Positions 4,245 through 31,545 of a DNA stretch of 37,969 nucleotides are shown in pieces (position 1 is the stretch's first letter; every line of letters begins with the position of its first letter). This DNA comes from Candidatus Nomurabacteria bacterium. Its GTDB lineage: Bacteria > Patescibacteriota > Minisyncoccia > Phycocordibacterales > UBA5272. The notes beneath the pieces are model-generated. The model searched no databases. It saw only the letters and a list, made by a program, of their open reading frames with translations, and was not told where the DNA came from. The stretch spans positions 8,975 to 46,943 of the forward strand of contig DOZK01000021.1 of assembly GCA_003518045.1 (NCBI GenBank), written 5' to 3'. Both the position numbers and the translations under genes were made by a program.

Positions 4245-4970
4245 TTAAATAATTAAATTCTTATGCAACTTTTCTTGAGCAAGCAAATTTGCTTTAACTA
4301 AAGAATCAAATGTCCCTGCATCAATCCACTCACCATTAATGACTCTCACATCTAGCTCTCCGTTATCTAAATATCTTTTATGTAAATCAACAATTTCGAG
4401 CTCACCTCTTTCGCTTGGTTTTGATTCTTTTGCAAATTGCACAATTCTAGAATCATAAATATAAACACCTGGAATTGCAAAATTACTTTTTGGATTTTTT
4501 GGTTTTTCTTCTATAGAAATTACTTTCATATCTTTATCAAATTCGACCACACCAAAACGCTCTGGGTCCTTAACTTCTTTTGCAAAAATCCTCGCCCCTT
4601 TTTTGAAAGAAGAAATATGTTCCGTTAAATCTTCTTCAAAAATATTATCCCCTAGTATCATAACTACGTCGTCCCCCTGTAAAAAGGTTTCGCCGATAAT
4701 AAAAGCCTCACTTAATCCCTTTGGACTATCTTGTATTTCATAAGTAAACTTAACACCCCATTCCTTACCTGAACCCAAAAGATTAAGATAATCCCCGGCT
4801 CTTTCTGGAGCTACTATTATTAAAATTTCTTTTATACCAGCCTTTATAAGAATATTCAACGGATAAAAAATCATTGGCCTATTATAAATAGGAAGCAACT
4901 GTTTAGAAGTAACAGCTGTTAATGGATACAATCTAGTCCCTTTTCCGCCTGATAAAATAATACCTTTCAT
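4245..4970 (-). CDS. rmlA: Glucose-1-phosphate thymidylyltransferase (short form)
   Basis: MKGIILSGGKGTRLYPLT...SKQLLPIYNRPMIFYPL and GLSEAFIIGE...LGDNIF blocks match RmlA/RfbA; 241 aa, lacks the usual C-terminal extension. Confidence 0.85.
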   Translation of the reverse strand: MKGIILSGGKGTRLYPLTAVTSKQLLPIYNRPMIFYPLNILIKAGIKEILIIVAPERAGDYLNLLGSGKEWGVKFTYEIQDSPKGLSEAFIIGETFLQGDDVVMILGDNIFEEDLTEHISSFKKGARIFAKEVKDPERFGVVEFDKDMKVISIEEKPKNPKSNFAIPGVYIYDSRIVQFAKESKPSERGELEIVDLHKRYLDNGELDVRVINGEWIDAGTFDSLVKANLLAQEKLHKNLII

Positions 4971-4983
4971 AAGCCTTATCTTA

Positions 4984-5868
4984 CTACTTTAAATCAATAA
5001 AGTCATTACTTGAAACGAAGTCCTTAAGCGCTTCTTTTAGCGGATGCAACACTGGACGCTTGGTATTTTTTAACACAGAAAATGCTGGGCGTTTAGCATT
5101 ACGTAAAATCGCATTACCATGTATTGGATTAATTTCAGTGTCATGGGCAATTATCTTAAATAATAATCTAAGTCCTTGATACCATGATTCTTCACCCTCA
5201 TTTATTAAATGATAAATACCGTAGTTACATTTATCTTCAATGAGTGATTTTGTAGCCTTTGCCAAATCAGGCGCATAAGTAAAACAGCTTATTTCATCAT
5301 CAACTACATTCAAAGATTTTTGAGAATGTGAGAGATGAAGCATAACTTCAAAGAAACTTTTCTTGCCAGTTACCCCTCTTTGTTTTGAAAATAATCTTGA
5401 TAATCTAATTATGTAAAACTTTTCACTAAAATTTTTGACAGCCTCTTCTCCTAAATATTTAGAAACGGCATATTTACAATTTGGAATTGGAATAATGTCT
5501 TCGGAAAATCCTCCTTCGATTTTTTCATTTTTACCAAATACATAATCAGTAGAATAATGTACAAAAGTAATTCCTAATTCTTTAGAAATTTTTGCAATGG
5601 CTTCCGGCACATCTTTATTTAATAAAATAGCTTTTGCATATTCTACTTCATCATCTTCACAATCATCGACTGAATTATAAGCAACTGTGTTTAAAATATA
5701 TTCCGGAGACAATTCTTTTATTTTTTGATTAAGCAATAAAATGTCTGTAACATCTATATCTTTATGGGACCATGTTGTTACAGAATATTTTTTATCACCA
5801 TTAAATAAATCAACTAACTCTTTGCCTAAAGTTCCAGTACTACCTAAAATAAGAATTTTTATAGGCAT
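4984..5868 (-). CDS. rmlD: dTDP-4-dehydrorhamnose reductase
   Basis: Rossmann ILILGSTGTLG, YAVSKYLGE (YxxxK), position within the rml operon, 10-nt overlap with rmlB. Confidence 0.8.
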   Translation of the reverse strand: MPIKILILGSTGTLGKELVDLFNGDKKYSVTTWSHKDIDVTDILLLNQKIKELSPEYILNTVAYNSVDDCEDDEVEYAKAILLNKDVPEAIAKISKELGITFVHYSTDYVFGKNEKIEGGFSEDIIPIPNCKYAVSKYLGEEAVKNFSEKFYIIRLSRLFSKQRGVTGKKSFFEVMLHLSHSQKSLNVVDDEISCFTYAPDLAKATKSLIEDKCNYGIYHLINEGEESWYQGLRLLFKIIAHDTEINPIHGNAILRNAKRPAFSVLKNTKRPVLHPLKEALKDFVSSNDFIDLK

Positions 5869-6833
5869 AAATTATTTTTTAATTTCCACCAAATTTCATT
5901 TTCTTTATACCATTCTATAGTTTTTTGAAGACCATCTTCAAATTTTATTTCTGGCTCCCACCCTAATTCATTTTTAATTTTCTCATATGAAATAGCATAT
6001 CTTCTATCATGACCGGCTCTATCTTCTACATTTTCTATAAAACTTTCGTCTTTTCCCATTAAAGAAAGAATTGTTTTTATAACGTCAATATTTTTCTTTT
6101 CACTATTACCACCGACACAATAAACCTCGCCTATCTTACCGTCATGCAAAATAATATCAATTGCGCGACAGTGATCTTCTACATAAAGCCAATCGCGAAT
6201 TTGTAGCCCATCTCCATAAACAGGAATTTTTTTATTTTCTAAAATATTAGTAATTGCAAGTGATATTAACTTTTCAGGAAATTGATAAGGCCCGTAATTA
6301 TTTGAACAATTAGAAATTGTAACCGGCAATCCATAAGTATGATAATAGGCCATAACCAAATGGTCGGACGACGCTTTAGAAGCACTGTATGGACTACGAG
6401 GGTCATAATTACTTATTTCATTGAAAGGCTTATCGCTATCATTTAATTGTCCGAAAACCTCATCAGTGGAAATATGATGGAAACGTTTATTCCCATGATT
6501 TCTAGCTGATTCTAGTAAAGTAAAAGTTCCAACTATATTTGTTTGAATAAAATTCACAGCATTACTTATTGACCTATCTACATGGGACTCCGCTGCGAAA
6601 TGTACAATAGCCCCGCATTCGCTCACTAAATTATCAACAAGATTTTTATCACAAATATTTCCATGTACAAATCTATATCTACTATCTCCACCCCACTCTT
6701 TCAGTGAATCTTTATCACCAGCATAGGTAAGCGCGTCCAAATTAATAACTTCGTAATCTTTATATTTATTTAAAATAAAATGTATAAAGTTAGATCCGAT
6801 AAATCCCGCTCCACCTGTTACAAGTATTTTCAT
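5859..6833 (-). CDS. rmlB: dTDP-glucose 4,6-dehydratase
   Basis: ILVTGGAGFIGSNF Rossmann motif, catalytic YSASKASSDH, typical length of 324 aa. Confidence 0.9.
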   Translation of the reverse strand: MKILVTGGAGFIGSNFIHFILNKYKDYEVINLDALTYAGDKDSLKEWGGDSRYRFVHGNICDKNLVDNLVSECGAIVHFAAESHVDRSISNAVNFIQTNIVGTFTLLESARNHGNKRFHHISTDEVFGQLNDSDKPFNEISNYDPRSPYSASKASSDHLVMAYYHTYGLPVTISNCSNNYGPYQFPEKLISLAITNILENKKIPVYGDGLQIRDWLYVEDHCRAIDIILHDGKIGEVYCVGGNSEKKNIDVIKTILSLMGKDESFIENVEDRAGHDRRYAISYEKIKNELGWEPEIKFEDGLQKTIEWYKENEIWWKLKNNLCL

Positions 6834-6837
6834 AATA

Positions 6838-7389
6838 TTAAATAATTCCTATTTTACTTTTAAGCACTTTAAAAGAATCCTGCACCTTATCTTTTTCACT
6901 AATTATTTTTTCACCATCTGGCCAAGTAATAGATATTTCTTCGTCATTCCACAATAGTCCTCCTTCACTTTCTTTATTCCACACTTCAGTACATTTGTAT
7001 GAAAAAATAGTATTATCAACGAGCGACATAAATCCATGAGCAAATCCAGCAGGGATAAAAACCTGTTTTTTATTTTCTTCAGAAAGTTCACAAGAAAAAT
7101 ATTTTCCAAAAGTAGGAGAATCTTTTCTTATATCAACTGCAACATCAAACACCTTTCCGCGAAGTACAGAAACTAATTTCCCTTGAGCGTGTGGTGTACT
7201 TTGAAAATGAAGTCCCCGAACTACACCCTTCTTTGAAACAGATATATTATCTTGTACAAAATTATCTGATATTCCGAGAGTTTTATAAAAATTCTCATTA
7301 TAAGACTCCATAAAATAACCACGTTCGTCAAAAAACGCTTTTAATTCAACTATAAATAATCCCTCAAAATCTGTTTTTATCACTTCCAT
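6838..7389 (-). CDS. rmlC: dTDP-4-dehydrorhamnose 3,5-epimerase
   Basis: Cupin blocks DERGYF, VRGLHFQ...QGKLV, AHGF; 183 aa; TAGTATAAT box 9 nt upstream of the ATG. Confidence 0.9.
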   Translation of the reverse strand: MEVIKTDFEGLFIVELKAFFDERGYFMESYNENFYKTLGISDNFVQDNISVSKKGVVRGLHFQSTPHAQGKLVSVLRGKVFDVAVDIRKDSPTFGKYFSCELSEENKKQVFIPAGFAHGFMSLVDNTIFSYKCTEVWNKESEGGLLWNDEEISITWPDGEKIISEKDKVQDSFKVLKSKIGII

Positions 7390-7432
7390 ATTGATATGAT
7401 TATACTACGAATTGCAAAACAAGGTTTTAGGA

Positions 7433-8560
7433 TTAAATATTTAAAAAATTATTTTTACTGTTTTTAATCAAATCCCTAATAGCTTTTTCATCTATGTAAT
7501 ACCTAAGCTCTTTATCATTTTCCACCATAAAAAGTATCATACGAGCATACATTTTGTCTGTACCATGAATTTCATCAACGAATTCTGTGTCTTTTCCTCC
7601 AAAAGAAAGTGTCGACGAAAAATCGAAAAATAAGGCATTGTTTTTTCTAAAAATATCTTGTTCTTTTTTTATATTATCAATAACCATCTCTTTATAAATA
7701 CCACTTCCCTCATACATTTGACTATAAACAGATTGTGGGAAAGGTGGCGCAAACCCAACAACAAGTATCCCCTTTTCTTGACAGAGTTTTAAAAATAATG
7801 AGAGTTTTTTCAAATTTTCTTCTAAGATTTTATTTTTAGAATTATAATTCTGATTATTTTCTTTTTTTATTACACCTACTTTTTCTTGTATACGTTTATT
7901 AACATCCTCGATTAAATTTTTATTAGTCTGTGCTTCAAAATACCTATAGCTTCCATCATATCGAAAACCATCACCATTTATAAGAGCGGATATCCCTATA
8001 TTATGATTTTCTTTTGAATTATTTATTAAGGTATTTAAATTAAATTTGTGAGAAAAATAATCAAGATACATTCTTCTAGACATAAAAGAAAAAGTGTCTA
8101 TCATTCTTTTAGGAAACAATAGCTCTTTTTTATCACTATTCTTGTTTAAATCTTCATATAACATTTCCTGGTCTAAGCCAAAAAAAATAACTTTTAAATT
8201 ACTATTATTTGGTAAATCATTAACGAATTTCTCTGCATCGTTTAAAGACCTAACAGCACCCCCAGCATTTACAAAAGAATTTGGCTTAATAAAAAACTCC
8301 TTTCTTATTTCCATAACTCGTGATGTGCCTAATGCAATCACATTTCCATTTTGTTCCCTAAAAAGAAGATTTTTATATGGGAAAAATAAAGTTGAGACAT
8401 AGGAAAATCCAAAAATAGTTTGAGAGAACTCTTTCTGAGTTGCCACAACTTCTTTTATTGAATAAAATTCTCTTCCATAAAAAATTACCATTGCAGGGAA
8501 AATAAAAAGTAAAATTATTGGAAAAAGAAATATAATAATTTTTTTAATAAAAACTATCAT
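7433..8560 (-). CDS. Membrane-anchored SGNH/DltD-like protein, partner of MBOAT-1
   Basis: ATG at 8560 lies 5 nt after the MBOAT stop; the longer TTG-initiated ORF to 8644 would overlap the MBOAT. N-terminal TM helix, ALGTSRV (candidate block I Ser) and C-terminal DEIHG (DxxH). Call is weak, based on sequence only plus position. Confidence 0.55.
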   Translation of the reverse strand: MIVFIKKIIIFLFPIILLFIFPAMVIFYGREFYSIKEVVATQKEFSQTIFGFSYVSTLFFPYKNLLFREQNGNVIALGTSRVMEIRKEFFIKPNSFVNAGGAVRSLNDAEKFVNDLPNNSNLKVIFFGLDQEMLYEDLNKNSDKKELLFPKRMIDTFSFMSRRMYLDYFSHKFNLNTLINNSKENHNIGISALINGDGFRYDGSYRYFEAQTNKNLIEDVNKRIQEKVGVIKKENNQNYNSKNKILEENLKKLSLFLKLCQEKGILVVGFAPPFPQSVYSQMYEGSGIYKEMVIDNIKKEQDIFRKNNALFFDFSSTLSFGGKDTEFVDEIHGTDKMYARMILFMVENDKELRYYIDEKAIRDLIKNSKNNFLNI

Positions 8561-8565
8561 ACAAA

Positions 8566-10029
8566 TTAAAATTGAAAATAGATGAATGTCTGTGAACCAA
8601 AATATCCAAATAAAAGAATTCCACAAACAAGAAAATAATACCAACCATATCTTACAATTTTTGGAGTATTATCAAAAATATAAAATGTCTTATTTTTCTC
8701 CTGAAAGAACTGAACGATTTCCATAGTAAGTATTGAAAAAATGGAAACATACAAAACTATTTTCCCGGACTGTAAAGTTAATTGATTAAAAATATCTTGA
8801 ATGCTTAAATCAAAAATTGTTTTGTTAAAAATATTAGACAAAAAATACCAAGCCTTTCCAACTGTTTCTGATCTAAAGAAAATAAAACTGACACACATAC
8901 CAAAAAATACAATGATTGTTTGTATTATTTGATGCAGTTTTGGTAATTTGTCTAAATGAATAATTCTAACTATATTTTTACGAAGCTTCTCCGTTACTGA
9001 CTCAATTACTAAATACGCACCATTAATCGCACCAAAAACAACAAATGTCCAATTAGCCCCATGCCAAAGTCCAATAAGAACAAAAGTTATAAACAAACTA
9101 TAGAGAAGTTTTATTTTAGAAACTCTACCCCAACCAAGAGCTAGTGGATAATATAAATAATCTCGTAACCAATTTGAAAGTGACATATGCCATCTACGCC
9201 AAAATTCTGCAAAACTTCTTGAAGCATACGGACGATTAAAGTTTTCCGACAAATCATAGCCAAGCATCATTGCTGTCCCGAGTGCTATATCTGAATACCC
9301 TGAAAAATCACAATAAAGTTGATAAGCAAACATAATTGCAATAACAATCAAAAGTAAACTGTCTTGCGGTAGATTAGCATATAAAGGATTTATAATTTGT
9401 GCAAGCTGGTCAGCAATAACCATTTTTTTAAAAAATCCCCATAACATTCTCTCTAACCCTCGTCTTGCTAAAACAAAATTAAATTCGTGTGTTAAATTAA
9501 GCTGTGGCAAAAGATGTTGTGGACGCTCTATAGGACCAGCAACAAGTTGTGGGAAAAACATAACATAAAGAGCATAGGTAAGATAATTTTTCTCTGGCGT
9601 ATATTTCTTTTTATATACTTCTATAACATAACTCAAACTTTGGAATACGTGGAATGAAAGACCAAGTGGTAACGCAATAGTAAGTAATAGCGGTGTATAA
9701 TTCCAGTGTAAAAAATTTGCCAATAAAGAAATATTTTCATTAAAGAAATTAAAATATCTAAAAAAGATCAGAGTTCCTATATTTGCCACTATACTTATTC
9801 CAAGTAATAATTTTCTACTACCACCTTCCCTCTTTTCTATTTCTTTTGCTAAGAAAAAATCTACAGTTATAAGCCCAAAAAGAATTAAAATATATTTTGG
9901 AACAAAAGCCATATAAAACACACAGCTGGCTAGTAGCAAAAATATATTTCTATATTTGGATTTAATTACATAATATAAAACAAAAACTATTGGAAAGAAT
10001 ATTGCGAAGGAAAAGGAATTAAATAGCAT
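8566..10029 (-). CDS. MBOAT-family membrane O-acyltransferase (AlgI/DltB/PatA-like), copy 1
   Basis: 487-aa polytopic ORF; blocks FFPQLVAGPIERP, CDFSGYSDIA, FWRRWHMSLS, GLWHGANW (catalytic His). Confidence 0.9.
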   Translation of the reverse strand: MLFNSFSFAIFFPIVFVLYYVIKSKYRNIFLLLASCVFYMAFVPKYILILFGLITVDFFLAKEIEKREGGSRKLLLGISIVANIGTLIFFRYFNFFNENISLLANFLHWNYTPLLLTIALPLGLSFHVFQSLSYVIEVYKKKYTPEKNYLTYALYVMFFPQLVAGPIERPQHLLPQLNLTHEFNFVLARRGLERMLWGFFKKMVIADQLAQIINPLYANLPQDSLLLIVIAIMFAYQLYCDFSGYSDIALGTAMMLGYDLSENFNRPYASRSFAEFWRRWHMSLSNWLRDYLYYPLALGWGRVSKIKLLYSLFITFVLIGLWHGANWTFVVFGAINGAYLVIESVTEKLRKNIVRIIHLDKLPKLHQIIQTIIVFFGMCVSFIFFRSETVGKAWYFLSNIFNKTIFDLSIQDIFNQLTLQSGKIVLYVSIFSILTMEIVQFFQEKNKTFYIFDNTPKIVRYGWYYFLVCGILLFGYFGSQTFIYFQF

Positions 10030-10033
10030 ATAT

Positions 10034-10795
10034 TTAAATTATTTGGGTTTCTGGGGCAAGTAAAAAAGTTAGCTCGGAAACATTTATTGAGTCATCTCCA
10101 CATAGAAAGCTTATTTTGTTTGCGACTTCATTTGCATCAGTAAGTTTTTTTGTAGGACTACTATTTCTAACAATTTCAATAAAGGCACGCGGTGTAGAAC
10201 TATTCATTCCCCCTTCCATAACACCTGGAGCAATAGAATACACACGAACATTAGATGCTTTTAATTCTTCTTTTAAAGCAACTAACATTCCCTGTAACGC
10301 AAATTTAACAACACTATAAGCACCGCGTGCTTTCGTATTATTTTGCGTAACAACGTTTGCAGTAATAATTCCAATAATGACTCCTTGTTTATGTTCTTTA
10401 AGAATAGTTGCAGCTGACATTAAAAAATTAAAACTACCAAATACATTGACTTCAAATTGCTCTTGTAAATCTTTTAAACTAGAAAGATGTAATTGTTTTG
10501 GCTTTGGTATCACTCCGGCTGTATGAATACAAGCATATATATTACCCATCTCCTTTTCAATTAATTCCAATGTTTGTTTTACATTGTCAGCATCTTCAAG
10601 ATTACAAACATAAGCATGATGTCCTCCACCTTTTAGTGTTTCCATCATTTCCTCTACTTCTTCTTTAGATTTTTTATGATACAAAACTGCAACCGACATT
10701 CCATCTTCAGCTAATTTTTTTACCACTTCAAAACCAACATATCCTGTGCCACCGGAGATTACTGCTATTCTTTTTTGTATATTTGATGTATTCAT
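10034..10795 (-). CDS. Short-chain dehydrogenase/reductase (ketoreductase-like)
   Basis: GGTGYVG nucleotide-binding motif and YSVVKFAL (YxxxK); 253 aa. Confidence 0.8.
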   Translation of the reverse strand: MNTSNIQKRIAVISGGTGYVGFEVVKKLAEDGMSVAVLYHKKSKEEVEEMMETLKGGGHHAYVCNLEDADNVKQTLELIEKEMGNIYACIHTAGVIPKPKQLHLSSLKDLQEQFEVNVFGSFNFLMSAATILKEHKQGVIIGIITANVVTQNNTKARGAYSVVKFALQGMLVALKEELKASNVRVYSIAPGVMEGGMNSSTPRAFIEIVRNSSPTKKLTDANEVANKISFLCGDDSINVSELTFLLAPETQII

Positions 10796-10798
10796 ATT

Positions 10799-11215
10799 TT
10801 AAATAACCTGGACCTTAGCTTCACCTAAAACGACAACATCTTTTCCTTTTTTCATCACTATATTGATAGTAAGTATTTTTGTTGCTTCACTTTTAAAAAT
10901 AACAGTTCCGACAACTTCTATTTCATCTCCAATAAATACTGGATTCTTGAAAGACAAATTCTGACTAAGATAAAGACATCTTTTCCCTGGTATACACATA
11001 CCAACAAATCTTGAGCAAAGAGACCCGAGCAACATGCCATGTACTAATCTCTGTTTAAATTGTGTCCCCTCTGCATAAGAAATATCTGTGTGCAATGGAT
11101 TCATATCCCCACTTAATTCTGCAAACTTCATAACTTCATCTTCCATAAAAACACGATAAAAAGAAGCATTATCTCCAACTTTTATTTCATCAAAAGAAAG
11201 TTCTTTAGCGTTCAT
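10799..11215 (-). CDS. MaoC-like hot-dog dehydratase
   Basis: ATG at 11215, 1 nt after the ACP stop; MaoC signature FAELSGDMNPLHTD. Confidence 0.85.
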   Translation of the reverse strand: MNAKELSFDEIKVGDNASFYRVFMEDEVMKFAELSGDMNPLHTDISYAEGTQFKQRLVHGMLLGSLCSRFVGMCIPGKRCLYLSQNLSFKNPVFIGDEIEVVGTVIFKSEATKILTINIVMKKGKDVVVLGEAKVQVI

Positions 11216-11216
11216 T

Positions 11217-11441
11217 TTATTTTTTATTCTTTTCAACTAAAACACGTAAATCACCAAGTGTTTGAGCATTCATTACTTCGTCCATGCTAAAAGACATAGA
11301 AAATTCTTTTTCAAGTTCTGCAATAAAAAGTAAATAGTTCATAGAATCCCAGTTTGGAATATCTTTTGATGAAAGTTCATCTTTTATATTTTCTTCTTTT
11401 ACACCGAATAATTCTTCTACTATTTGATTAAATGTTTTCAT
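11217..11441 (-). CDS. Acyl/peptidyl carrier protein (dedicated ACP)
   Basis: ATG at 11441 overlaps the FkbH-like stop (ATGA); 74-aa acidic protein with phosphopantetheine-site motif NWDSMNYLLF (Ser33). Confidence 0.85.
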   Translation of the reverse strand: MKTFNQIVEELFGVKEENIKDELSSKDIPNWDSMNYLLFIAELEKEFSMSFSMDEVMNAQTLGDLRVLVEKNKK

Positions 11442-12478
11442 ATATTTATTTTCACCCACGCTGGAGACTCTTTACAATTATCAATTTCATATTTACCATC
11501 AGTAAAATGTTTTTTTATAAATTCTCTGGCTGGCAAATTTTTCTCAGTCTCCTCCTGTGCAATTGTAATTAAATTAACCCCCATATCTTTAGCTTGTTTA
11601 ACTATTGTAGCAAAAAATGCCTCCTCAACATCTTTACCAAATACCCGGCAACTCATAAGAAGTGATTTTATATGCCAAACCAACTCTTCCTTTTCAACAA
11701 GTGCAAATAATATAATTCCATAATCACCAAACTTATCTTGTAATCTTGCATGATAAACGTGATGATTTTCATTTTTTATATATTCACTAATTTCATCTTC
11801 CGATAATGGTTGCTTTAATGTATTAAACTGATTTGTTTTTCCTGTAAGTTGAGACAATCGTGGTATACAAGAATTATCATCTTTAAAAATAAAAAGTGAG
11901 AGGTCTAAACTTTTTAAAAAATCTTCTTTGGATTCGTATTGTTTTTCTTCTTCTTTTCGTAGACGTTCTGTTACATATAAATTTCCTCTCATTTTATCTT
12001 CATCTGTAATAACTAAAGATTCAAAATATGGAAGTGAGTTTAAAAATTGCGTATATTCTTTTGGGTCAACTGGCAACTCAGGAACTTCAACTTCTGGCAC
12101 AAGCGCACGTACCATGGCACGATTAGTTGGATCGTCATCTAAGAAGACCATCGAATCAAGACCGATATTTAATTCCTTAGCTAACTCTTTTATATTCTCT
12201 GCTTTGTCATTCCAATTTATACGATATGCGGCGAAATGCTTTTCCTTTAAAATCTGATTCGGATGATTACGAATTACATCCCAAACATCATTTTCATTAT
12301 TTCTACTATTTATGGCTAAAATAACACCTCTATCATAGTGGTCAAGAATTGCCTGCTGGAAGGCCATAAAACTGTTTCCAGGAGGTGTAAGCGATAGGGC
12401 AATCCCATCCTTACCATCTTCACCAATAACTCCACCCCAGAGCGTATTATCAAGATCTAGAACAAGACATTTTTTCAT
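11438..12478 (-). CDS. HAD-IIIC / FkbH-like protein (predicted glyceryl-ACP loading enzyme)
   Basis: ATG at 12478 preceded by GAAAGG; HAD motif I LVLDLDNTLWGG; C-terminal LMSCRVFGKDVE block containing the Cys conserved in FkbH-like proteins. Confidence 0.8.
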   Translation of the reverse strand: MKKCLVLDLDNTLWGGVIGEDGKDGIALSLTPPGNSFMAFQQAILDHYDRGVILAINSRNNENDVWDVIRNHPNQILKEKHFAAYRINWNDKAENIKELAKELNIGLDSMVFLDDDPTNRAMVRALVPEVEVPELPVDPKEYTQFLNSLPYFESLVITDEDKMRGNLYVTERLRKEEEKQYESKEDFLKSLDLSLFIFKDDNSCIPRLSQLTGKTNQFNTLKQPLSEDEISEYIKNENHHVYHARLQDKFGDYGIILFALVEKEELVWHIKSLLMSCRVFGKDVEEAFFATIVKQAKDMGVNLITIAQEETEKNLPAREFIKKHFTDGKYEIDNCKESPAWVKINI

Positions 12479-12506
12479 AATATTACCTTTCAAGATAACA
12501 CAAAAA

Positions 12507-12848
12507 CTACGCTACGGCAATTGCGGCGGCTACTGTATCTGTATGAGTTATTGATATATTTACAGATATTTTTTTACCTTTATGAAAGGCTACTGGTTCC
12601 CCATCTTTTCCATGTCTAATTTCAATTTCAGAAAATGGAAAAAGTTTAACTCCCAGGGCTTTACTTACTGCTTCTTTAGCCGAAAAAGTACCAGCCAAAT
12701 GTGGTGCTGGATTTTTAAAAGAAAAACAATATCCGAGTTCTTTTTCAAAAAAAACTTTTTTAAGAAATGGATCACTTATTTTTGAATTAAATTTCTCAAA
12801 ACGTGAGACATCCACAATATCTATGCCAACTCCTTTTAATTTATTCAT
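12507..12848 (-). CDS. acpS: Holo-ACP synthase (4'-phosphopantetheinyl transferase)
   Basis: 113 aa; GIDIVDVSRF and FSAKEAVSKA blocks typical of AcpS. Confidence 0.85.
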   Translation of the reverse strand: MNKLKGVGIDIVDVSRFEKFNSKISDPFLKKVFFEKELGYCFSFKNPAPHLAGTFSAKEAVSKALGVKLFPFSEIEIRHGKDGEPVAFHKGKKISVNISITHTDTVAAAIAVA

Positions 12849-12853
12849 ATAAA

Positions 12854-13951
12854 TTATTTTTTAATTAATGGACTAACTAATTTCATTGTTTCTTTTACAC
12901 CTTCAGCATTCCAATGTGTATCATCAGTATGATAAAGAGTTTTATTTTCTTTTATAGTTGCCTTAAAAAACTGATCTTGGGTATTTACGGCTTTTACCCC
13001 TTTTTCATTTAAAGCTTTTACAAGGTCTGGAATAAAATGTGGTTTTGTTTTACTTGGTAATGAATCCCAATAAATTGTTTCCTTATTCGGAACTGGTACA
13101 AAAATAAGTTGTATTCCTTTTTCTTTTAAAACTTTATCCACCTCAACTATTTTTGAAACTGTAAGGTTAAAATCTTGTTTAGAAACTTCTTTATTAGCTA
13201 TATCGCCTTGGAAAAATAACATTGGAGAATTATCAAACTTTATGACTGGTTTTGCTTCAAAAAAATACTGGGTATTCGCTCTAAAATAATGATACATATT
13301 CTGTTTCAGAAAACGATCAAGTAAAACAAAGACGTCCGTTAGTTTTTCAAGGTGAAAAGTATGGATTATTTTCTGTGCTATTTCATGTGAGAAAGAAATA
13401 AAATTGTATGTATATTTTGTAGAAAAATTACTTACATCAGTTAAGTCTCTTTCCATTTGAACAAGAACAATTGTTTTTGGTGAATGGACTGTCAGATAAT
13501 CGCTGTGAAGAAACTCTGTCATAAGAATACCTCCCATTCCATAAACGTCTTTACCTATTGATTTTGAAAGCACTTCTGCAGCTGTTTCTTTTTGATCAAG
13601 TCCTGAACCAACAGCAAGAGAATCTCCAACAAGGACAATATCGTATTGTTCATTTGGGGAAAGCCTCGTGCGATATCCGTCATTATTAGTTACCCATTCT
13701 ACATTTTTAATCACCTCATTTGGAGTATGAACACCTAAGTCTCCAGTTTCCACCATAGACATTTTCATGTTTGGATAAAATGGTCCAGGTAATAATATTC
13801 TACCCGCCCTATTATAAACATTTATTGACTCCCAAAATCTATGAGAAAAATAATTCACTGGTAAAGCTAGTTCTACGGCAGACATTATGAAAAAGGGAAT
13901 TAAAAATAAAAATGTTCTTATTATAAATTTTTTATATTCTAGGTTTTTCAT
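12854..13951 (-). CDS. Membrane-anchored SGNH O-acyltransferase-like protein (AlgJ/AlgX/DHHW type), partner of MBOAT-2
   Basis: N-terminal TM helix; block I VLVGDSLAVGSG; C-terminal YHTDDTHWN (DxxHW). Confidence 0.7.
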   Translation of the reverse strand: MKNLEYKKFIIRTFLFLIPFFIMSAVELALPVNYFSHRFWESINVYNRAGRILLPGPFYPNMKMSMVETGDLGVHTPNEVIKNVEWVTNNDGYRTRLSPNEQYDIVLVGDSLAVGSGLDQKETAAEVLSKSIGKDVYGMGGILMTEFLHSDYLTVHSPKTIVLVQMERDLTDVSNFSTKYTYNFISFSHEIAQKIIHTFHLEKLTDVFVLLDRFLKQNMYHYFRANTQYFFEAKPVIKFDNSPMLFFQGDIANKEVSKQDFNLTVSKIVEVDKVLKEKGIQLIFVPVPNKETIYWDSLPSKTKPHFIPDLVKALNEKGVKAVNTQDQFFKATIKENKTLYHTDDTHWNAEGVKETMKLVSPLIKK

Positions 13952-13954
13952 AAA

Positions 13955-15418
13955 TTAAAATTGAAAATAAATAAACTGTTGCCCTGCTTCAACAAATAAA
14001 AATCTTAGAATTACGACCATTAAAAAATAAATAGTCCACCTTACAAAGATATTTAGAGAAGATACTTTATCTTCAAATCCTTTATCGCGTAACCAATATT
14101 GTACACCCTCTAATATAAATATAGATAAAATCGCAAGAAAAACGTTATAAATATTAGAATTTAATTCTTTTGGTAAAGATTCCCAGAACGAAAACTTTGT
14201 TATATCAAAAATATTAACAAATGAACTTTTCAAAATAAAATAGGCATCAGTTAATGTTTTTGCACGGAAAAATACCCAACCAATACAAATTAATGTAAAA
14301 GTTACCACAACTTGTAAAATAGAATGAAACCCTGGAAACATATTAAGTTTAAAAAACTCCGATATGGAATTTCTTAAAGATACGGTTGCTCTTTCATACA
14401 TTAAAAAGATGGCTTGAAGAGCTCCCCAAATTACAAAAGTCCAATTTGCTCCATGCCAAAGTCCGCTTAACAAAAAAACAATAAAAATATTTCTATAAAT
14501 TTTCCAATTAGATGTCTGACTCCCACCTAATGGGAAATAAACATAATCTCTAAACCAACTAGAAAGTGAAATATGCCACCTTCTCCAGAACTCTGTTATG
14601 GAGTGTGATGAATATGGCCTATCAAAATTATTCATAAGATTAAATCCAAGAACTTGTGCGCCTCCGCGTGCAATATCTGTGTATCCAGAGAAATCACAAT
14701 ATATTTGATAGGCAAAAAATATAGTAGCAATAATAAAGATCGGGCCTGAATAATTATTAGTATTATCAAATATCTGATTAACCATAACAGCTAAGCGGTC
14801 TGCTATAACTATCTTTTTTATAAACCCCCAAGCCATTAATTTTAATCCCTTTGTTACACGCTCATAATTAAAATAATGATGCTCATAAAATTGATGAATC
14901 AAATTTTGTGGTCTTTCAATTGGACCAGCTACTAATTGCGGGAAAAACATAACATAAAGAGCGTAAATACCAATATGCCTTTCGGCTTTTTGATTTCTAC
15001 GATAAACCTCAATCGTATAACTCATTGCTTGAAATGTGTGGAAAGAAAGTCCTACAGGTAAAAGAATGTGCAGAAATTCCAATGAATAATTCCAATGAAT
15101 AAAAGTTGCTATTTCATTTATATTTTCCGCGAAAAAATTAAAATATTTAAAGAACGCCAATATGCCAACATTAGCAATAATACTAATGATTAAAAAAAGT
15201 TTACGTTTTTTACCTTCGGACTTTTCTATTAAAATACCAGCAAAATAATCAATAAAAATTGTAAAGGCTAATATTAAAATATATTTTGGAACAAAAGCCA
15301 TATAAAAAATACAGCTTGCTATTAATAGCATTAACCATCTAAATTTTTGCGGCAATAAATAATACAAAGCAACAACAATTGGAAAGAAAATTATAAATTG
15401 TTTTGAATTAAAAATCAT
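13955..15418 (-). CDS. MBOAT-family membrane O-acyltransferase, copy 2 (paralog of 8566..10029)
   Basis: 487 aa, same blocks as copy 1 (FFPQLVAGPIERP, CDFSGYTDIA, FWRRWHISLS, GLWHGANW); both end in FIYFQF; about 60% identical to copy 1 over the first 60 residues by eye. Confidence 0.9.
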   Translation of the reverse strand: MIFNSKQFIIFFPIVVALYYLLPQKFRWLMLLIASCIFYMAFVPKYILILAFTIFIDYFAGILIEKSEGKKRKLFLIISIIANVGILAFFKYFNFFAENINEIATFIHWNYSLEFLHILLPVGLSFHTFQAMSYTIEVYRRNQKAERHIGIYALYVMFFPQLVAGPIERPQNLIHQFYEHHYFNYERVTKGLKLMAWGFIKKIVIADRLAVMVNQIFDNTNNYSGPIFIIATIFFAYQIYCDFSGYTDIARGGAQVLGFNLMNNFDRPYSSHSITEFWRRWHISLSSWFRDYVYFPLGGSQTSNWKIYRNIFIVFLLSGLWHGANWTFVIWGALQAIFLMYERATVSLRNSISEFFKLNMFPGFHSILQVVVTFTLICIGWVFFRAKTLTDAYFILKSSFVNIFDITKFSFWESLPKELNSNIYNVFLAILSIFILEGVQYWLRDKGFEDKVSSLNIFVRWTIYFLMVVILRFLFVEAGQQFIYFQF

Positions 15419-15430
15419 TTTTATACTTTA

Positions 15431-16252
15431 TTACTTTCTTTCAAGAATCATCCACTCCTGTTCTTGCCACCCTCTTTCACGGCGCAACTCATATAAATCT
15501 TTTTCATTTTTAATTTCAGCAAAAAACGGGAAATTCTTAGGGTTGGCTAATTCAAATGGAATAATTTTTATATTGTGTGTATCCTTAAAACGATTAGCCA
15601 AAATTTCTTTTGCGTTTGGTCGAATAAAATCGTGAAGCTCTATTATGGCTGTTTTTACTTTTTTAAATTCTGAAAAATTTTCTGGATCTAAAATATCCAC
15701 CTCCCCTCCTTCACAATCACACATAAGCAAAGTGTTATCAGTAATTAAAGGAGAAACATTTTTTGAAGTTGCTTCTTCAAATAAAGACAATTTATTAGTT
15801 AAATTGTTTTTCTCATACATTTCTTTACTAAGATTTCTACCAATTTCTTCTAAGTCAAACCCGATTAAATGTAAGTCCGGAAACATTTTCCCAAAACCAA
15901 TTAAGTAATATCCTTCAGCAGAACCAATATCCAAAAAAGTATCAAAGTTTTTATCTTTTAAAGTCTTTATATACGGATGTAGAATTGCCTCATATGAACC
16001 AATAAGTTTGTGTAGATAAGAACTTCCAACAGCTTTATCAACATATTTCATCCCCTCAAATGGCCCCGCTTGTACTACTTTTGGAAACTTTGATAAAAAT
16101 ATGGCTTCATATTTTGCAAGTATATTATTGTCCCCGACAAAACGAGCAAAAAGATTAACCCATACTGATTTAACAAAATTAAAAAGTCTTGCTGGAAGAA
16201 TTTTCTTAATAAAGAATTTTACCCTTACACGAATTGGAAGATATTGTTTCAT
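15431..16252 (-). CDS. Class I SAM-dependent methyltransferase (subfamily uncertain)
   Basis: 273 aa; SAM motif I FLDIGSAEGYY followed by an acidic GFDLE block. Confidence 0.6.
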   Translation of the reverse strand: MKQYLPIRVRVKFFIKKILPARLFNFVKSVWVNLFARFVGDNNILAKYEAIFLSKFPKVVQAGPFEGMKYVDKAVGSSYLHKLIGSYEAILHPYIKTLKDKNFDTFLDIGSAEGYYLIGFGKMFPDLHLIGFDLEEIGRNLSKEMYEKNNLTNKLSLFEEATSKNVSPLITDNTLLMCDCEGGEVDILDPENFSEFKKVKTAIIELHDFIRPNAKEILANRFKDTHNIKIIPFELANPKNFPFFAEIKNEKDLYELRRERGWQEQEWMILERK

Positions 16253-16261
16253 ATAATATTG

Positions 16262-18025
16262 TTAAATCTTTTTTGAAATTAAATAATTTCCTATTGCTAA
16301 ATGTGGAAGCCCAGAAAGCTCAAATGTACGAAGTGCATCATATGGTTTTTCTACATTTGGCTCACCATGCAAATTAAAACTAGTATTTAGAATACCGCCA
16401 GAACCAGTTAATTTCTCATATTCAGAAATTAATGCATGATATTCCGGATTAACTTCTTTCTTCACCATTTGTGGGCGTGAAGTTAAATCATAAGGATGAA
16501 GTGCTGCGATTAATTCTTTGTGGGCTAATTCTTTAGTTGGAAATGTAATTGCCATATATGGTGCATATTCGTCTTTATTCAAAATTAGATAATCATGTCT
16601 TCTCTCATATAAAAGTGAAGTTGCAAACGGCATCCAAAAATCTCTCCCTTTTATCATTTCATTAATTAATTTTACATTATCATGTGATGATGGATTAGCT
16701 AAAATGGAACGATTACCGAGGGCTCTTGCCCCCCACTCAGCACGACCTTTAAATCTTCCGACCACACTATTCCCAGCTAAAATCTCTGCAACTTTTTTCT
16801 CTATAGTATTTTCACTTTTTGGGTCAAAATATTTTACATCACATTTTTTACAAAATTCATATTCATCAATTACCTTTTTTATTTCTTCGTCAGAATACTC
16901 TCCACCTAAATATAGATGTTCCAACTTTTTTAAACCAGATAAATCATTTTTGTACAAAACAGAATAACCGTACAAAGCATTTCCTATTGAAAGTGATTCG
17001 TCCCCACAAGAAGGGACTAAGAGCAGTGAGTTTACTTCTGGCATTTCGGAAATATATTGATTCGCTTTCACATTCATAAATACTCCCCCACCAACAGCTA
17101 AATCACTACAATTGTATTTCTTCATAGCAAAACGTGCCATGTCTTTTACTATTTCCTCAGTAAGTTTTTGTATACCATATGCTAAAGAATCAAATCGATA
17201 TTGATAATAATCATTCGCTATTAAATACGGTGTCGCTCTTCTTGTATCTATTTTTGAAACCAACTGCATTGTATTTTCATCAAACCACAATATCTCTTTT
17301 AATTTTTCATAAACTTTTTCCCCTGAAGTTTTTTTTGCATAAGGCGCAAGACCCATTACTTTAAACTCATGCTCATTGCGAGACATTCCCAGTAAATCAA
17401 CAAAAGAAGCATACAAAAGTCCAAGTGAATTTCCTCTTTCAAAAATATGTAAAACTTTTATATCTCCATTTTCAAAAAGATTTATTGAACCACAAAAAGT
17501 ATCCCCCTCACCATCTAAAACAAAAATGATTCTACGCTTATTTTTATCTTCCATAAAAGGTAAAGATGCCCAAGCGTGAGATAGATGATGTGGAACTTCT
17601 ATGATAGACGCTCCAGGGAATTGCTCTTCTAAATATTTTTTAGTTTTCTTTTCTACTCCAGAAACAATAACTTTAAGTGAAAATAAAAAATCTTGTATTT
17701 TATATACGATTTTAATAAACGGCAATTTAACTGCAACGGCTTTTATAAACCATTTCCCTTTATTTATACGATTACGATAATCAGCATTATCTTTCGTAGT
17801 ATTCACAATATGAGCACCTAATTTTATTCCATCAACAAAAACATAATCAAATTTTTCTAAATTATATTTTTCTTTTATATATGCAAGAGAAAAATGTGGA
17901 AATCCAATGTGTTTCTTTTGACGAGAAAGACGCTCTTCTGACATCGATTCGACTATTTCCCCATCTTTCATAAGGGTTATAGTTGCATCATGTCCGAAAT
18001 TTACTCCCAGAATATAATCACTCAT
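16262..18025 (-). CDS. Carbamoyltransferase (NodU/CmcH family)
   Basis: 587 aa; ILGVNFGHDATITLMKDGEIV N-terminus, VPHHLSHAWAS His cluster, C-terminal NTSFNLHGEP. Confidence 0.85.
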   Translation of the reverse strand: MSDYILGVNFGHDATITLMKDGEIVESMSEERLSRQKKHIGFPHFSLAYIKEKYNLEKFDYVFVDGIKLGAHIVNTTKDNADYRNRINKGKWFIKAVAVKLPFIKIVYKIQDFLFSLKVIVSGVEKKTKKYLEEQFPGASIIEVPHHLSHAWASLPFMEDKNKRRIIFVLDGEGDTFCGSINLFENGDIKVLHIFERGNSLGLLYASFVDLLGMSRNEHEFKVMGLAPYAKKTSGEKVYEKLKEILWFDENTMQLVSKIDTRRATPYLIANDYYQYRFDSLAYGIQKLTEEIVKDMARFAMKKYNCSDLAVGGGVFMNVKANQYISEMPEVNSLLLVPSCGDESLSIGNALYGYSVLYKNDLSGLKKLEHLYLGGEYSDEEIKKVIDEYEFCKKCDVKYFDPKSENTIEKKVAEILAGNSVVGRFKGRAEWGARALGNRSILANPSSHDNVKLINEMIKGRDFWMPFATSLLYERRHDYLILNKDEYAPYMAITFPTKELAHKELIAALHPYDLTSRPQMVKKEVNPEYHALISEYEKLTGSGGILNTSFNLHGEPNVEKPYDALRTFELSGLPHLAIGNYLISKKI

Positions 18026-22989: not shown

Positions 22990-23937
22990 ATGAAGAAAAA
23001 AATTCTTGTTACGGGAGGACTTGGACAGGTTGGATCAGAATTGGTACCTGCACTAGAAAAGAAGTATGGTAAAAATAGCGTGATTATTCTTGATAAAAAA
23101 GAAAACCTGGTTTATAAGGGTTTATATGTTAAGGGTGATGTTGTTAATAAAAAACTTATAGAAGACACCGTAAAAAAATATAAAATTACTGAGATATATC
23201 ATTTGGCCTCTCTTCTTTCTGTTACCGGGGAACAAAATCCAGAACTTGCTTGGTCTGTCAACATTGAAGGACTAAGAAATATTTTAGAATGCGCAAGAAT
23301 ATATAATCTTAAAGTTTTTTGGCCAAGCTCTATAGCTGTATTTGGAATGACAACTCCACAAGATGAAACTCCTCAAAAAACAATTCTTGAGCCAACGACT
23401 ATTTATGGTGTAACTAAAGTCTCTGGTGAACTTCTTTGCCAATATTATTTTAAAAAATATAAAGTAGATGTTAGAAGCGTTCGTTATCCTGGAATAATAA
23501 GTTGGAAGACTCTTCCTGGTGGCGGTACAACTGATTACGCGATAGATATATTTTGGCACGCTCTTAGTACAGGAAATTACACTTGCTTTTTAAATAAAAA
23601 TACGGCTCTTCCAATGATGTATATTGATGATGCCATTAAAGCAACTATCGATATTATGGGGGTTGATGCGAAAAAAATAACAATTCGTACAAGTTATAAT
23701 ATTTCTAGTTTTAGTTGTACTCCAGAATTATTGGCTACGGCAATACGCAAACAAAATATTCCGCTTAAAATGAAACACGCTACTGACATCAGGCAATCAA
23801 TTGCAGACTCTTGGCCAAACTCCATTGATGATAGGCAGGCTAAAAAAGACTGGAAATGGAAACCCGTCTTTGATATTAAAAAAACGGTTAAGGAAATGCT
23901 ATCTGGCGTGACAAAAATGCAAAGCAATAAAAATTAA
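22990..23937 (+). CDS. tdh: L-threonine 3-dehydrogenase (SDR / epimerase-fold type)
   Basis: ILVTGGLGQVGSELV Rossmann motif, YGVTKVSGE (YxxxK), immediately upstream of kbl. Confidence 0.75.
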   Translation: MKKKILVTGGLGQVGSELVPALEKKYGKNSVIILDKKENLVYKGLYVKGDVVNKKLIEDTVKKYKITEIYHLASLLSVTGEQNPELAWSVNIEGLRNILECARIYNLKVFWPSSIAVFGMTTPQDETPQKTILEPTTIYGVTKVSGELLCQYYFKKYKVDVRSVRYPGIISWKTLPGGGTTDYAIDIFWHALSTGNYTCFLNKNTALPMMYIDDAIKATIDIMGVDAKKITIRTSYNISSFSCTPELLATAIRKQNIPLKMKHATDIRQSIADSWPNSIDDRQAKKDWKWKPVFDIKKTVKEMLSGVTKMQSNKN

Positions 23938-23941
23938 AAAC

Positions 23942-28276: not shown

Positions 28277-28283
28277 TTTAAAA

Positions 28284-30086: not shown

Positions 30087-30099
30087 GGAATATAGTATA

Positions 30100-30127
30100 C
30101 AGTGAGCAGTGGACAGTGACCAGTAGA
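30100..30127. repeat. Heptamer tandem repeat (CAGTGAG CAGTGGA CAGTGAC CAGTAGA) in the 5' region of the ATPase gene
   Basis: Four consecutive CAGTNNN units, ending 14 nt upstream of the ATG at 30086 (minus strand). Confidence 0.7.
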
Positions 30128-30148
30128 TACGAAGAGGTAAAGGGGAAA

Positions 30149-30180
30149 AATATTCAATGAGACAATTTTCAATATTCAAA
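30149..30180 (-). repeat. 32-nt TTGAATATT box, copy in minus orientation
   Basis: Reverse complement TTTGAATATTGAAAATTGTCTCATTGAATATT matches 31738..31769 at 29 of 32 positions. Confidence 0.8.
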
Positions 30181-30229
30181 GAAAATACGAGATGCTTAAA
30201 TTAATTTTCAATATCCAATTTTCAAAAAA

Positions 30230-30265
30230 GACAGACCTGGATTCCCGCCTTCGCGGGAATGACAC
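30230..30265. repeat. Single hairpin-repeat unit
   Basis: GACAGACCTGGATTCCCGCCTTCGCGGGAATGACAC; same flanks as the other units with a different complementary stem. Confidence 0.8.
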
Positions 30266-30317
30266 GACAAATTACAATAATTTAAAATTTTAAAAAAAAT
30301 ACAAAACAATAAAGGTT

Positions 30318-30386
30318 CCTCGCAGCAAGCTGACGAGGTATTTTAGGAACTCGCTTCGCTCGTACTAACGCGTAGCAAGCTACGCG
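30318..30386. repeat. Two GCAAGC-centred hairpins
   Basis: CCTCGCAGC-AA-GCTGACGAGG (30318..30338) and CGCGTAGC-AA-GCTACGCG (30369..30386). Confidence 0.75.
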
Positions 30387-30471
30387 GTATTTGAACCTTT
30401 TTATGTCGTCGCTCGGACTAAATATAAAAGAGTACTTTTCTATTTAGCTCCTCACTAGACAAAATAAAAAA
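30387..30471. repeat. 85-nt intergenic repeat element, copy 2
   Basis: Direct repeat of 1..85 (see first feature). Confidence 0.85.
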
Positions 30472-30494
30472 GGGGCCGTCTTGCGACAGCACCC
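30461..30494 (-). terminator. Intrinsic terminator of the 30546..30881 ORF
   Basis: Minus strand GGGTGCTGTC-GCAA-GACGGCCCC (one mismatch, one bulge) followed by TTTTTTATTTT. Confidence 0.55.
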
Positions 30495-30545
30495 GAGGAT
30501 GATTGAACACACAAATTAAGGTTGGCAACGCCCACCGGAACTTGC

Positions 30546-30881: not shown

Positions 30882-30968
30882 CATTTTCTCCAGTCAAACA
30901 AAATCGAAGAGTAGGAATCCACTCTTACGATAAGACTTATCCTACCTTTTTGTGTACAACTTGTAAAA

Positions 30969-31536: not shown

Positions 31537-31545
31537 TAATGAACT

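Follow-up and report, generated by a model that had tools for sequence, protein, structure and literature searches.

An FkbH-type acyl carrier cassette joined to an MBOAT/SGNH pair in a conserved seven-gene operon of Patescibacteria: a probable carrier-protein-dependent route for acylating surface polymers

The acylation of envelope polymers by paired MBOAT and SGNH proteins is a general bacterial strategy, of which the Dlt pathway is one form: an acyl group held as a thioester by a small carrier protein is moved across the membrane, with the help of a conserved histidine of the MBOAT protein, to the tyrosine of an FXYXXF motif, from which a membrane-anchored SGNH protein passes it on to a polymer outside the cell (PMC12148441). 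The Dlt counterpart of this motif sits on DltX (PMC12148441), and in PatA it forms the tail of the MBOAT protein itself, where its tyrosine is auto-acetylated and then serves as donor for the SGNH protein (Anderson et al. 2025, PMC12148441). According to the 2025 literature, only Dlt among the MBOAT/SGNH pathways uses a carrier protein, the others drawing on acyl-CoA (PMC12148441). A different group of enzymes, the FkbH/OzmB type, converts 1,3-bisphosphoglycerate to glyceryl-ACP (ACP, acyl carrier protein) by way of a phosphoglyceryl-S-enzyme (PMC9057759, PMC7489565); OzmB, a characterised member, has 366 amino acids (aa) (PMC9057759). To date, this loader has been characterised in no setting other than natural-product pathways for polyketides and non-ribosomal peptides. 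Here we describe an operon in which the two are joined, found in a stretch of 37,969 nucleotides from a Candidatus Nomurabacteria contig (DOZK01000021.1), which is referred to as a whole as the window. The probable task of the operon is to assemble a three-carbon acyl group from a glycolytic intermediate on a carrier protein of its own and to export it via an MBOAT protein to a surface polymer. An earlier reading of the window (the original prediction) had proposed a Dlt-like use of such a cassette, and its statement that DltB is the only MBOAT known with a carrier-bound donor agrees with the published account (PMC12148441).

The operon occupies positions 7433-12848 of the minus strand, within a surface-glycan cluster that comprises rmlABCD, six glycosyltransferases, a Wzx-type flippase, a carbamoyltransferase, methyltransferases and two MBOAT + SGNH-type pairs. 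We think it reasonably probable that it encodes a carrier-protein-dependent MBOAT/SGNH pathway that acylates an extracytoplasmic envelope polymer. Its seven genes, followed by the second MBOAT/SGNH pair of the cluster, are as follows:

12507..12848, minus strand: AcpS-type 4'-phosphopantetheinyl transferase, 113 aa (PF01648, E 7.9e-17; TIGR00516, 59.8 bits, equal to its cut-off)
11438..12478, minus strand: short (OzmB-type) FkbH, 346 aa (TIGR01686 and TIGR01681), predicted glyceryl transferase/phosphatase
11217..11441, minus strand: dedicated ACP, 74 aa (PF00550, E 1.1e-5; Ser33 in WDS)
10799..11215, minus strand: MaoC/hydratase-2 hot-dog dehydratase, about 138 aa (PF01575, E 3.9e-18)
10034..10795, minus strand: FabG-like short-chain dehydrogenase/reductase (SDR), 253 aa (PF13561, E 5.5e-34; PF00106, E 1.1e-30; KR domain, E 3e-11)
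8566..10029, minus strand: MBOAT_A, 487 aa (PF03062, E 6.6e-24), C-terminal FIYFQF
7433..8560, minus strand: SGNH_A, membrane-anchored SGNH/DltD-like protein, 375 aa, probable start ATG 8560 (assigned by fold and conserved residues)
12854..13951, minus strand: second SGNH partner, AlgX/AlgJ type, 365 aa (PF16822 ALGX, E 1.2e-15)
13955..15418, minus strand: MBOAT_B, 487 aa (PF03062, E 8.3e-28), also ending FIYFQF

The open reading frames (ORFs) of the window were checked against Pfam and TIGRFAM profiles, every sizeable ORF being either placed in a family or left without a Pfam match. The five minus-strand genes at 10034-12848 on which the original prediction centred are all present and match their family profiles; they are co-directional, with intergenic gaps of -4 to 28 bp. 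The interval itself proved too narrow, the conserved unit being 7433-12848 with MBOAT_A and SGNH_A included: only 4 bp separate the SDR stop from the MBOAT_A start, and 5 bp separate MBOAT_A from SGNH_A. Both of the MBOAT + SGNH pairs said to bracket the cassette are real (MBOAT_A with SGNH_A, MBOAT_B with the AlgX-type protein), and the nearest relatives of the window proteins are named Patescibacteria, Parcubacteria and Sungbacteria, in keeping with the host from the candidate phyla radiation (CPR) that had been supposed.

The FkbH ORF opens at 12493, and its probable start is the ATG at 12478, where its homologues start. The protein matches TIGR01686 ('FkbH domain') with 315.8 bits (cut-off 146.65) across positions 2-317 of the 323 in the profile, and TIGR01681 (HAD-IIIC) with 71.8 bits; the FkbH_N domain (PF21211) is absent from it and present in the long forms of the family. 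The FkbH aspartate and cysteine residues, whose loss would have told against the proposal, are in place: HAD motif I (D8-L-D10-N-T12, DLDNT) and Cys277 of the 'SCR' block, the candidate thioester cysteine, are invariant in an alignment of 16 sequences with a mean column identity of 73%. FkbH homologues number more than 7000, and identity among the CPR members is 64-72%. The ACP, foreseen as a 74-aa protein with Ser33 and with a start codon that overlaps the FkbH stop as ATGA, was found as described, W31-D32-S33 being conserved at 90% or more (94 homologues) and the overlap being read directly in the sequence. D10, E59 and K63 of AcpS are conserved (33 homologues), and 22 of the 27 short-FkbH loci have AcpS at the head of the module. 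The MaoC gene has its ATG at 11215, one base past the ACP stop (the listed ORF opens at TTG 11236), and the protein bears the hydratase-2 motif SGDMNPLH, with D44 and H49 conserved (39 homologues). The SDR, which carries GGTGYVG and conserved Y160 and K164, is predicted to be a 2-ketoacyl-ACP (or enoyl-ACP) reductase. The family assignment of all sizeable ORFs found no KS, AT, C or A domain in any window ORF and no FabD, FabH or FabF gene among them, bearing out the claim that the window holds no polyketide synthase (PKS), non-ribosomal peptide synthetase (NRPS) or fatty-acid synthase gene; nor does the window or the conserved module contain an ORF with an AMP-binding domain, that is, a DltA-type ligase.

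The export half of the operon consists of MBOAT_A and SGNH_A. MBOAT_A aligns with DltB (6BUG; phmmer E 9.6e-27) through both conserved histidines, H323 falling on the histidine of the DltB WHG motif and H281 being conserved as well; H281, H323, F482, I483, Y484, F485 and F487 are invariant in 36 sequences. Its AlphaFold2 (AF2) model (pLDDT 84) has DltB as its best Foldseek match in the Protein Data Bank (PDB) (6bug_C; E 8.9e-12; TM 0.71 by target length), and past the DltB-aligned core the chain runs on for about 100 residues, with helices at 423-446 and 457-474 and the end F482-I-Y484-F-Q-F487. MBOAT_A is the predicted acceptor of the acyl group carried by the ACP. SGNH_A has no Pfam match, the Pfam families of DltD included; its AF2 model (pLDDT 93.4) shows an N-terminal transmembrane helix and has DltD (6o93) as its top Foldseek match (E 3.9e-4, prob 1.00), followed by many GDSL/SGNH hydrolases. 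G78, S80, D202, G203, S204 and H332 show no variation, and D329 is conserved at 90% or more, Ser80 sitting in a GTSR block and D329-x-x-H332 forming a second one; SGNH_A is predicted to be an extracytoplasmic acyl transferase. The family to which SGNH_A belongs (P0121-P0176 and P0297-P0436 included) has 4125 representatives at E<=1e-3 and 1344 at E<=1e-30 in a profile search, and it diverges much faster than FkbH does in the same genomes (about 40% vs about 70% identity).

The joining of these two halves is carried by gene order. We scanned 105 FkbH loci (handles with L below) with the window proteins: 80 from genomes, 18 from metagenomes, which were the yield of a scan with a single FkbH protein as query, and 7 obtained by exact-protein look-up, among them 3 short duplicate fragments. 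An ACP lies in the same fetched locus as FkbH in 91 of these 105, mostly immediately adjacent. The string AcpS-FkbH-ACP-MaoC-SDR-MBOAT-SGNH-like turns up, between unrelated flanks, in no fewer than 13 Patescibacteria contexts that are not identical to one another. Its first six genes stand in this order in L001/L081/L094, L083, L085, L086, L087, L091, L103, L104 and L105, and the MBOAT gene of these CPR loci is usually followed by one for a 317-389-aa unannotated protein. Many of the FkbH, MBOAT_A and SGNH_A matches list identically sized longest contigs (e.g. 160511, 48545, 49228, 20417). The module set lies among glycan genes in L103 and L105 and outside glycan clusters in L081, L083 and L104, where it is flanked by peptidase M3 and alpha/beta-hydrolase genes (L081, L104) or by Ddl and an ice-binding-like protein (L083). 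As these last three loci contain no transferase other than the MBOAT protein, it is the only candidate user of the acyl-ACP in them.

The same linkage is met when the search starts from MBOAT_A: three relatives at 56-60% identity (P0215, P0284 and P0259), chosen for having contigs outside the FkbH top-120 list, all adjoin the cassette (L106, L107, L108), standing beside AcpS/FkbH/ACP, MaoC and/or SDR and a 369-389-aa partner. In a rough neighbour-joining tree of all MBOATs from the fetched loci, the co-directional MBOATs that abut the cassette group with MBOAT_A in one clade (12/12), every member of which abuts the cassette except that of L014, which lies within 5.4 kb of FkbH; MBOAT_B and the second MBOAT copies form its sister clade. 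MBOAT_B was also considered as the partner of the cassette and was rejected, the cassette-abutting MBOATs being orthologous to MBOAT_A, yet L103 and L087 have only a B-clade copy. The linkage of cassette and MBOAT is, in our view, strongly supported. The neighbourhood comparison that the original prediction had called for thus finds FkbH-ACP and MBOAT together in at least 13 CPR contexts, in three of three reciprocal cases and in several other lineages, and the Dlt-analogous link with FkbH in the place of DltA gains support from synteny that is conserved, reciprocal and cross-phylum. The choice of an MBOAT protein as partner stands and can be narrowed: the partner is specifically the downstream MBOAT_A, which has a fused FXYXXF tail of the PatA/AlgI type in place of a separate DltX.

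Outside CPR, most FkbH homologues are about 600 aa long, have the additional FkbH_N domain and are nearly always accompanied by an ACP; a reductase function considered for this N-terminal extension was rejected on its identification as PF21211. An ignavibacterial locus (L061, Ignavibacteriaceae, 4754-11083) holds a methyltransferase, a GDSL protein, an ACP, an MBOAT (FLYFQF), a glyoxalase/VOC-family protein and a long FkbH. Two archaeal loci combine the elements differently: L038 (Nitrosopelagicus) has an MBOAT (FIYFQF), FkbH, ACP and MaoC, and L009 (Micrarchaeota) has an SGNH-like ORF that ends with a DATH block, a 390-aa MBOAT, AcpS, FkbH, ACP and MaoC. L068 (Reyranella) has ACP, FkbH and MBOAT. 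In L043 (Rhodospirillales), the genes for ACP, MaoC, SDR and a long FkbH are followed by a microprotein (11081-11197, plus strand, 38 aa, MSDKKNAASFAWLLVKTLIFIVLYISASGGMIIAYQQF) that has one hydrophobic helix, ends in IIAYQQF and opens 4 nt past the FkbH stop; 3 nt further on comes an SGNH protein (11200-12348) with GDSNTFG and DAHF blocks, whose end is overlapped by a 404-aa MBOAT (12345-13559) of DltB length and without the fused motif. This is a DltX/DltD/DltB layout, with ACP, MaoC, SDR and FkbH where DltA and DltC would be, and the microprotein looks like a DltX-type acyl shuttle outside the Firmicutes.

For the window operon we propose the following route. AcpS would turn the 74-aa ACP into its holo form, as its family membership suggests, and FkbH would load it from 1,3-bisphosphoglycerate, through a phosphoglyceryl-S-Cys intermediate and its dephosphorylation, to give glyceryl-ACP, the family being established by profile and the chemistry being that of OzmB. 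MaoC would then eliminate the C3 hydroxyl to give enol-pyruvoyl/pyruvoyl-ACP, which the SDR would reduce to lactyl-ACP, keto- and enoyl-reduction giving the same product. Dehydration is placed before reduction because only this order gives both MaoC and SDR a substrate. An SDR that oxidises first, in the manner of FkbK, was considered and rejected, oxidation at C2 leaving no alpha-proton for the MaoC dehydratase. In the bryostatin pathway, a D-lactate starter has been proposed for the BryA loading module, which has the order DH-KR-FkbH-ACP. MBOAT_A would collect the acyl group from the ACP on the cytoplasmic side and, using His323, place it on its own Tyr484 at the outer face, synteny being what points to the ACP as donor, and SGNH_A (Ser80, Asp329, His332) would take the group off the tyrosine and esterify a surface polymer, here plausibly a rhamnose-containing glycan. 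Lactyl, in preference to glyceryl or pyruvoyl, is thus our inferred acyl group, and the rhamnose glycan our inferred acceptor, in a module that is also met outside glycan clusters (L081, L083, L104).

Several points weigh against this account. The closest solved relatives of the ACP are generic ACPs rather than DltC, and its docking on MBOAT_A is presumptive. The PDB matches of MBOAT_A include no bacterial MBOAT other than DltB, so the top rank of DltB says little on the type of donor. The fold match of SGNH_A to DltD is weak globally (TM 0.34), and a profile of the SGNH_A family found no match among the PDB sequences. PatA, with its fused FXYXXF tail, uses acetyl-CoA in vitro (PMC12148441), and MBOAT_A could, by analogy, do the same. 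The sole MBOAT near the cassette in L103 and L087 is of the B clade and inverted; the SDR is absent from L107 and from the archaeal loci; the motif of the L043 microprotein, a single example, has Ile and not Phe in its first position; and the Saccharibacteria-type loci L003, L004, L093 and L095 have the cassette and no MBOAT nearby.

These points lend themselves to alternatives of unequal standing. One of the two that survive best retains the export machinery and changes its cargo, the exported group being glyceryl (2,3-dihydroxypropanoyl), pyruvoyl or an O-methylated derivative, and MaoC and SDR doing something else; we regard this as possible, if rather doubtful, for the window. MaoC occurs without SDR in L107, L038 and L009, from which it follows that lactyl is not the universal product, and lactyl cannot hold for L061 either, a locus with neither MaoC nor SDR and with other tailoring genes, namely those of the VOC/glyoxalase-family protein and the methyltransferase. 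In two unrelated loci (L089:4079-5032 and L043:7053-7973), a class I SAM methyltransferase gene is inserted in the FkbH cassette or lies beside it, which hints at O-methylated glyceryl or lactyl variants, and di-O-methylglyceric acid is found on the pseudaminic acid of C. jejuni (PMC3068675). Against this, the CPR clade keeps the catalytic residues of both MaoC (D44, H49) and SDR (Y160, K164), and dehydration of glyceryl-ACP followed by keto- or enoyl-reduction, the only order that feeds both enzymes, would by either route end in lactyl-ACP.

A similarly tentative place is due to the possibility that the acceptor is not a glycan, but peptidoglycan, a lipoteichoic-acid-like polymer, a surface protein or a membrane lipid. 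Both peptidoglycan and lipoteichoic acid are acylated by known MBOAT/SGNH pairs (PMC12148441), and the module is found beside Ddl, beside peptidase M3, or, in L061, beside NlpC/P60 and L-Ala-D/L-Glu epimerase-like genes, a context that may be tied to peptidoglycan. Opposed to this are the modules of the window and of L103, L105, L106, L107 and L108, which lie within flippase, glycosyltransferase and Wzt/Wzm glycan-assembly genes.

An export of the ACP-bound group through MBOAT_A, whatever the group and its acceptor, is denied altogether by the reading in which the genes cluster only since both systems decorate the same glycan: the MBOAT/SGNH pairs would depend on acetyl-CoA, and the acyl-ACP would be used by a separate cytoplasmic acyltransferase, for example in the N- or O-acylation of nucleotide sugars. 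PatA-type MBOATs with the same fused FXYXXF tail do use acetyl-CoA (PMC12148441), the window cluster contains many further decoration genes, and cj1302, an FkbH-domain gene of the C. jejuni flagellin glycosylation locus, has no known MBOAT role. The Saccharibacteria-type loci show what such an arrangement may look like: their cassette is AcpS-FkbH-ACP-MaoC, with or without the SDR, and in L003 (1185-1961, 4757-7046) it is preceded by a gene for an Antibiotic_NAT-family acyltransferase and followed by PseB/NeuB genes, without an MBOAT, and L004 (11715-15854) has the cassette beside HAD, nucleotidyltransferase and GDPD genes. The former suggests, by analogy with the glyceric-acid-modified pseudaminic acid of C. 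jejuni, the N-acylation of a nonulosonic acid. Since these loci carry the cassette without an MBOAT, the cassette behaves as a portable acyl-ACP supply that plugs into different transferases, the MBOAT/SGNH outlet being the one used in the lineage of the window. For that lineage we hold mere co-location to be unlikely, in view of the stand-alone seven-gene operons without another transferase (L081, L104, L083), the reciprocal tie between the MBOAT_A clade and the cassette, the immediate adjacency of ACP and MBOAT in L061 and of FkbH and MBOAT in L068 (with the ACP just upstream of FkbH), and the full Dlt-like layout of L043. That the FkbH-like protein is merely a HAD phosphatase, with ACP and AcpS as remnants of fatty-acid or lipid metabolism, is very improbable: Pfam does give just phosphatase-type HAD families (NIF, Acid_PPase) for it, but TIGR01686 is matched from end to end with a score twice the cut-off, so that the C-terminal half with the invariant Cys277 is covered too, the stop of its gene overlaps the start of the ACP gene, no KS, AT, FabD, FabH or FabF gene is present in the window, and the ACP accompanies FkbH in the great majority of loci (see above).

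The second MBOAT/SGNH pair of the window stands apart from the conserved operon. Its AlgX-type SGNH protein (12854-13951) has no sequence kinship with SGNH_A and is kept only in the closest relatives (L085, L086), and its membership in the pathway is uncertain; MBOAT_B, which shares 49% pairwise identity with MBOAT_A, may be either an ordinary O-acetyltransferase or a second outlet. Immediately upstream of MBOAT_B, at 15431-18025 (minus strand), lie genes for a NodU/CmcH-type carbamoyltransferase (587 aa) and a weakly FkbM-like methyltransferase (273 aa), which makes O-carbamoylation and O-methylation of the glycan probable as well. Between glycosyltransferase genes of the cluster, at 1502-2431 on the other (plus) strand, lies a gene for a Fic/DOC-family protein (PF02661, E 1.5e-19). 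At the cluster edge, an SDR-type epimerase/dehydrogenase and a class I/II aminotransferase-fold protein (402 aa) at 22990-25150 (plus strand) resemble the pair of L-threonine dehydrogenase and 2-amino-3-ketobutyrate CoA ligase. The cluster is further flanked, at 26891-32985 (minus strand), by a VirD4/TraG-like coupling ATPase, a lamin-tail/PKD-domain protein and a DUF4015 protein. In L105 (3002-7611; L106:15768-17464 was also compared), this coupling ATPase/lamin-tail/DUF4015 trio, together with a methyltransferase and a GT-D gene, directly adjoins the FkbH operon, for which reason the 13-20 kb part of the window (flippase, GT25, carbamoyltransferase and the MBOAT_B pair) looks like a variable insertion. 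The G+C content is 0.28-0.32 over the glycan cluster (positions 1-22000) as against 0.36-0.39 at 29-35 kb, which is consistent with separate histories of the glycan island and the flanking core genes. A tRNA-Ile(GAT) gene lies at the window end (37779-37854).

A literature search returned no paper that ties FkbH functionally to a bacterial MBOAT/SGNH pair: FkbH and MBOAT were found together only in papers on aeruginosin and suomilide, in unrelated steps, and nothing relevant was found on MBOAT, SGNH and acyl carrier protein together or on Patescibacteria and MBOAT. If the proposed route is correct, it is the second carrier-protein-fed pathway of its kind after teichoic-acid D-alanylation, and a counter-example to the view that only Dlt is carrier-dependent, with a PatA/AlgI-type MBOAT and its fused tyrosine shuttle served by a Dlt-style donor. 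A broader version of this proposal, whose chances we would call evenly balanced, sees a widespread second carrier-dependent MBOAT/SGNH pathway across CPR, DPANN and thaumarchaeal archaea, Ignavibacteria and Proteobacteria, in which FkbH would draw a glycolytic three-carbon unit onto a dedicated ACP, modular tailoring would make of it lactyl, glyceryl, pyruvoyl or O-methyl forms, and the MBOAT would pass it as acyl-tyrosine to a DltD-like SGNH family. If so, chemically undescribed hydroxy-acyl esters would be found on envelope polymers; for CPR/Patescibacteria and some archaea, the model predicts lactyl or glyceryl esters at the cell surface. CPR envelopes are almost unstudied, and the epibiotic lifestyle of these organisms depends on surface contact. 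CPR organisms are generally without fatty-acid synthesis, and their puzzling ACP and AcpS genes would be given a purpose by the model, the pathway being what could be the main or only use of these proteins in such cells; the model also defines a large SGNH family without a Pfam entry.

Among described systems, there is a likeness to cj1302 of C. jejuni and BF1531 of B. fragilis (PDB 3SLR), in which an FkbH-type protein is likewise encoded among surface-glycan genes; neither has been characterised or reported in connection with an MBOAT, and the acyl group in C. jejuni is N-linked to a nonulosonic acid, which matches L003 and not the window. With the loading module of BryA the cassette shares FkbH, ACP, dehydratase and ketoreductase and the same predicted product, a lactyl-S-carrier, and it differs in having discrete proteins, a MaoC hot-dog enzyme instead of a PKS DH domain, and a product that is no polyketide primer. 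The FkbH/OzmB polyketide pathways (methoxymalonyl-ACP, tetronates) have in common with it FkbH and a stand-alone ACP, the short two-domain form and 1,3-bisphosphoglycerate as the source (PMC9057759, PMC7489565), whereas the window operon lacks an FkbK-type HADH, an FkbI-type acyl-CoA dehydrogenase, an FkbG O-methyltransferase and a FabH-like condensing enzyme, and has, in place of a PKS or NRPS, an MBOAT as the predicted consumer downstream.

On the export side, MBOAT_A resembles the proteins of the PatA/PatB, AlgI/AlgJ/AlgX, WssH/WssI and PatA1/PatB1 systems in its length of about 480 aa, its two extra C-terminal helices, its FXYXXF end (FIYFQF, compared with FIYANF in N. gonorrhoeae PatA) and its SGNH partner, and the second pair of the window has an AlgX-type SGNH domain, as in AlgI/AlgJ/AlgX. 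The PatA/AlgI group uses acyl-CoA and no carrier protein (PMC12148441), whereas ACP, AcpS and FkbH are here co-operonic and co-inherited with the MBOAT. With Dlt, the operon shares a small carrier protein with a phosphopantetheine site (Ser33), an MBOAT with a catalytic histidine (H323), a membrane-anchored SGNH protein, best structural matches to DltB for MBOAT_A and, at a TM of only 0.34, to DltD for SGNH_A, and, in the L043 variant, a separate DltX-like microprotein with an MBOAT of DltB length. It differs from Dlt in the absence of a DltA ligase, loading being assigned to an FkbH-type glyceryl transferase/phosphatase that works from a glycolytic intermediate, in the addition of MaoC, SDR and a dedicated AcpS, in an ACP that is not DltC-like, in a predicted acyl group that is an uncharged hydroxy-acid and not an amino acid, and in the FIYFQF motif, which in the window is fused to the MBOAT, a separate microprotein being found only in L043. 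By analogy, then, the logic of the pathway is probably that of Dlt, with FkbH (together with MaoC and SDR) standing in for DltA and with DltX fused to the MBOAT.

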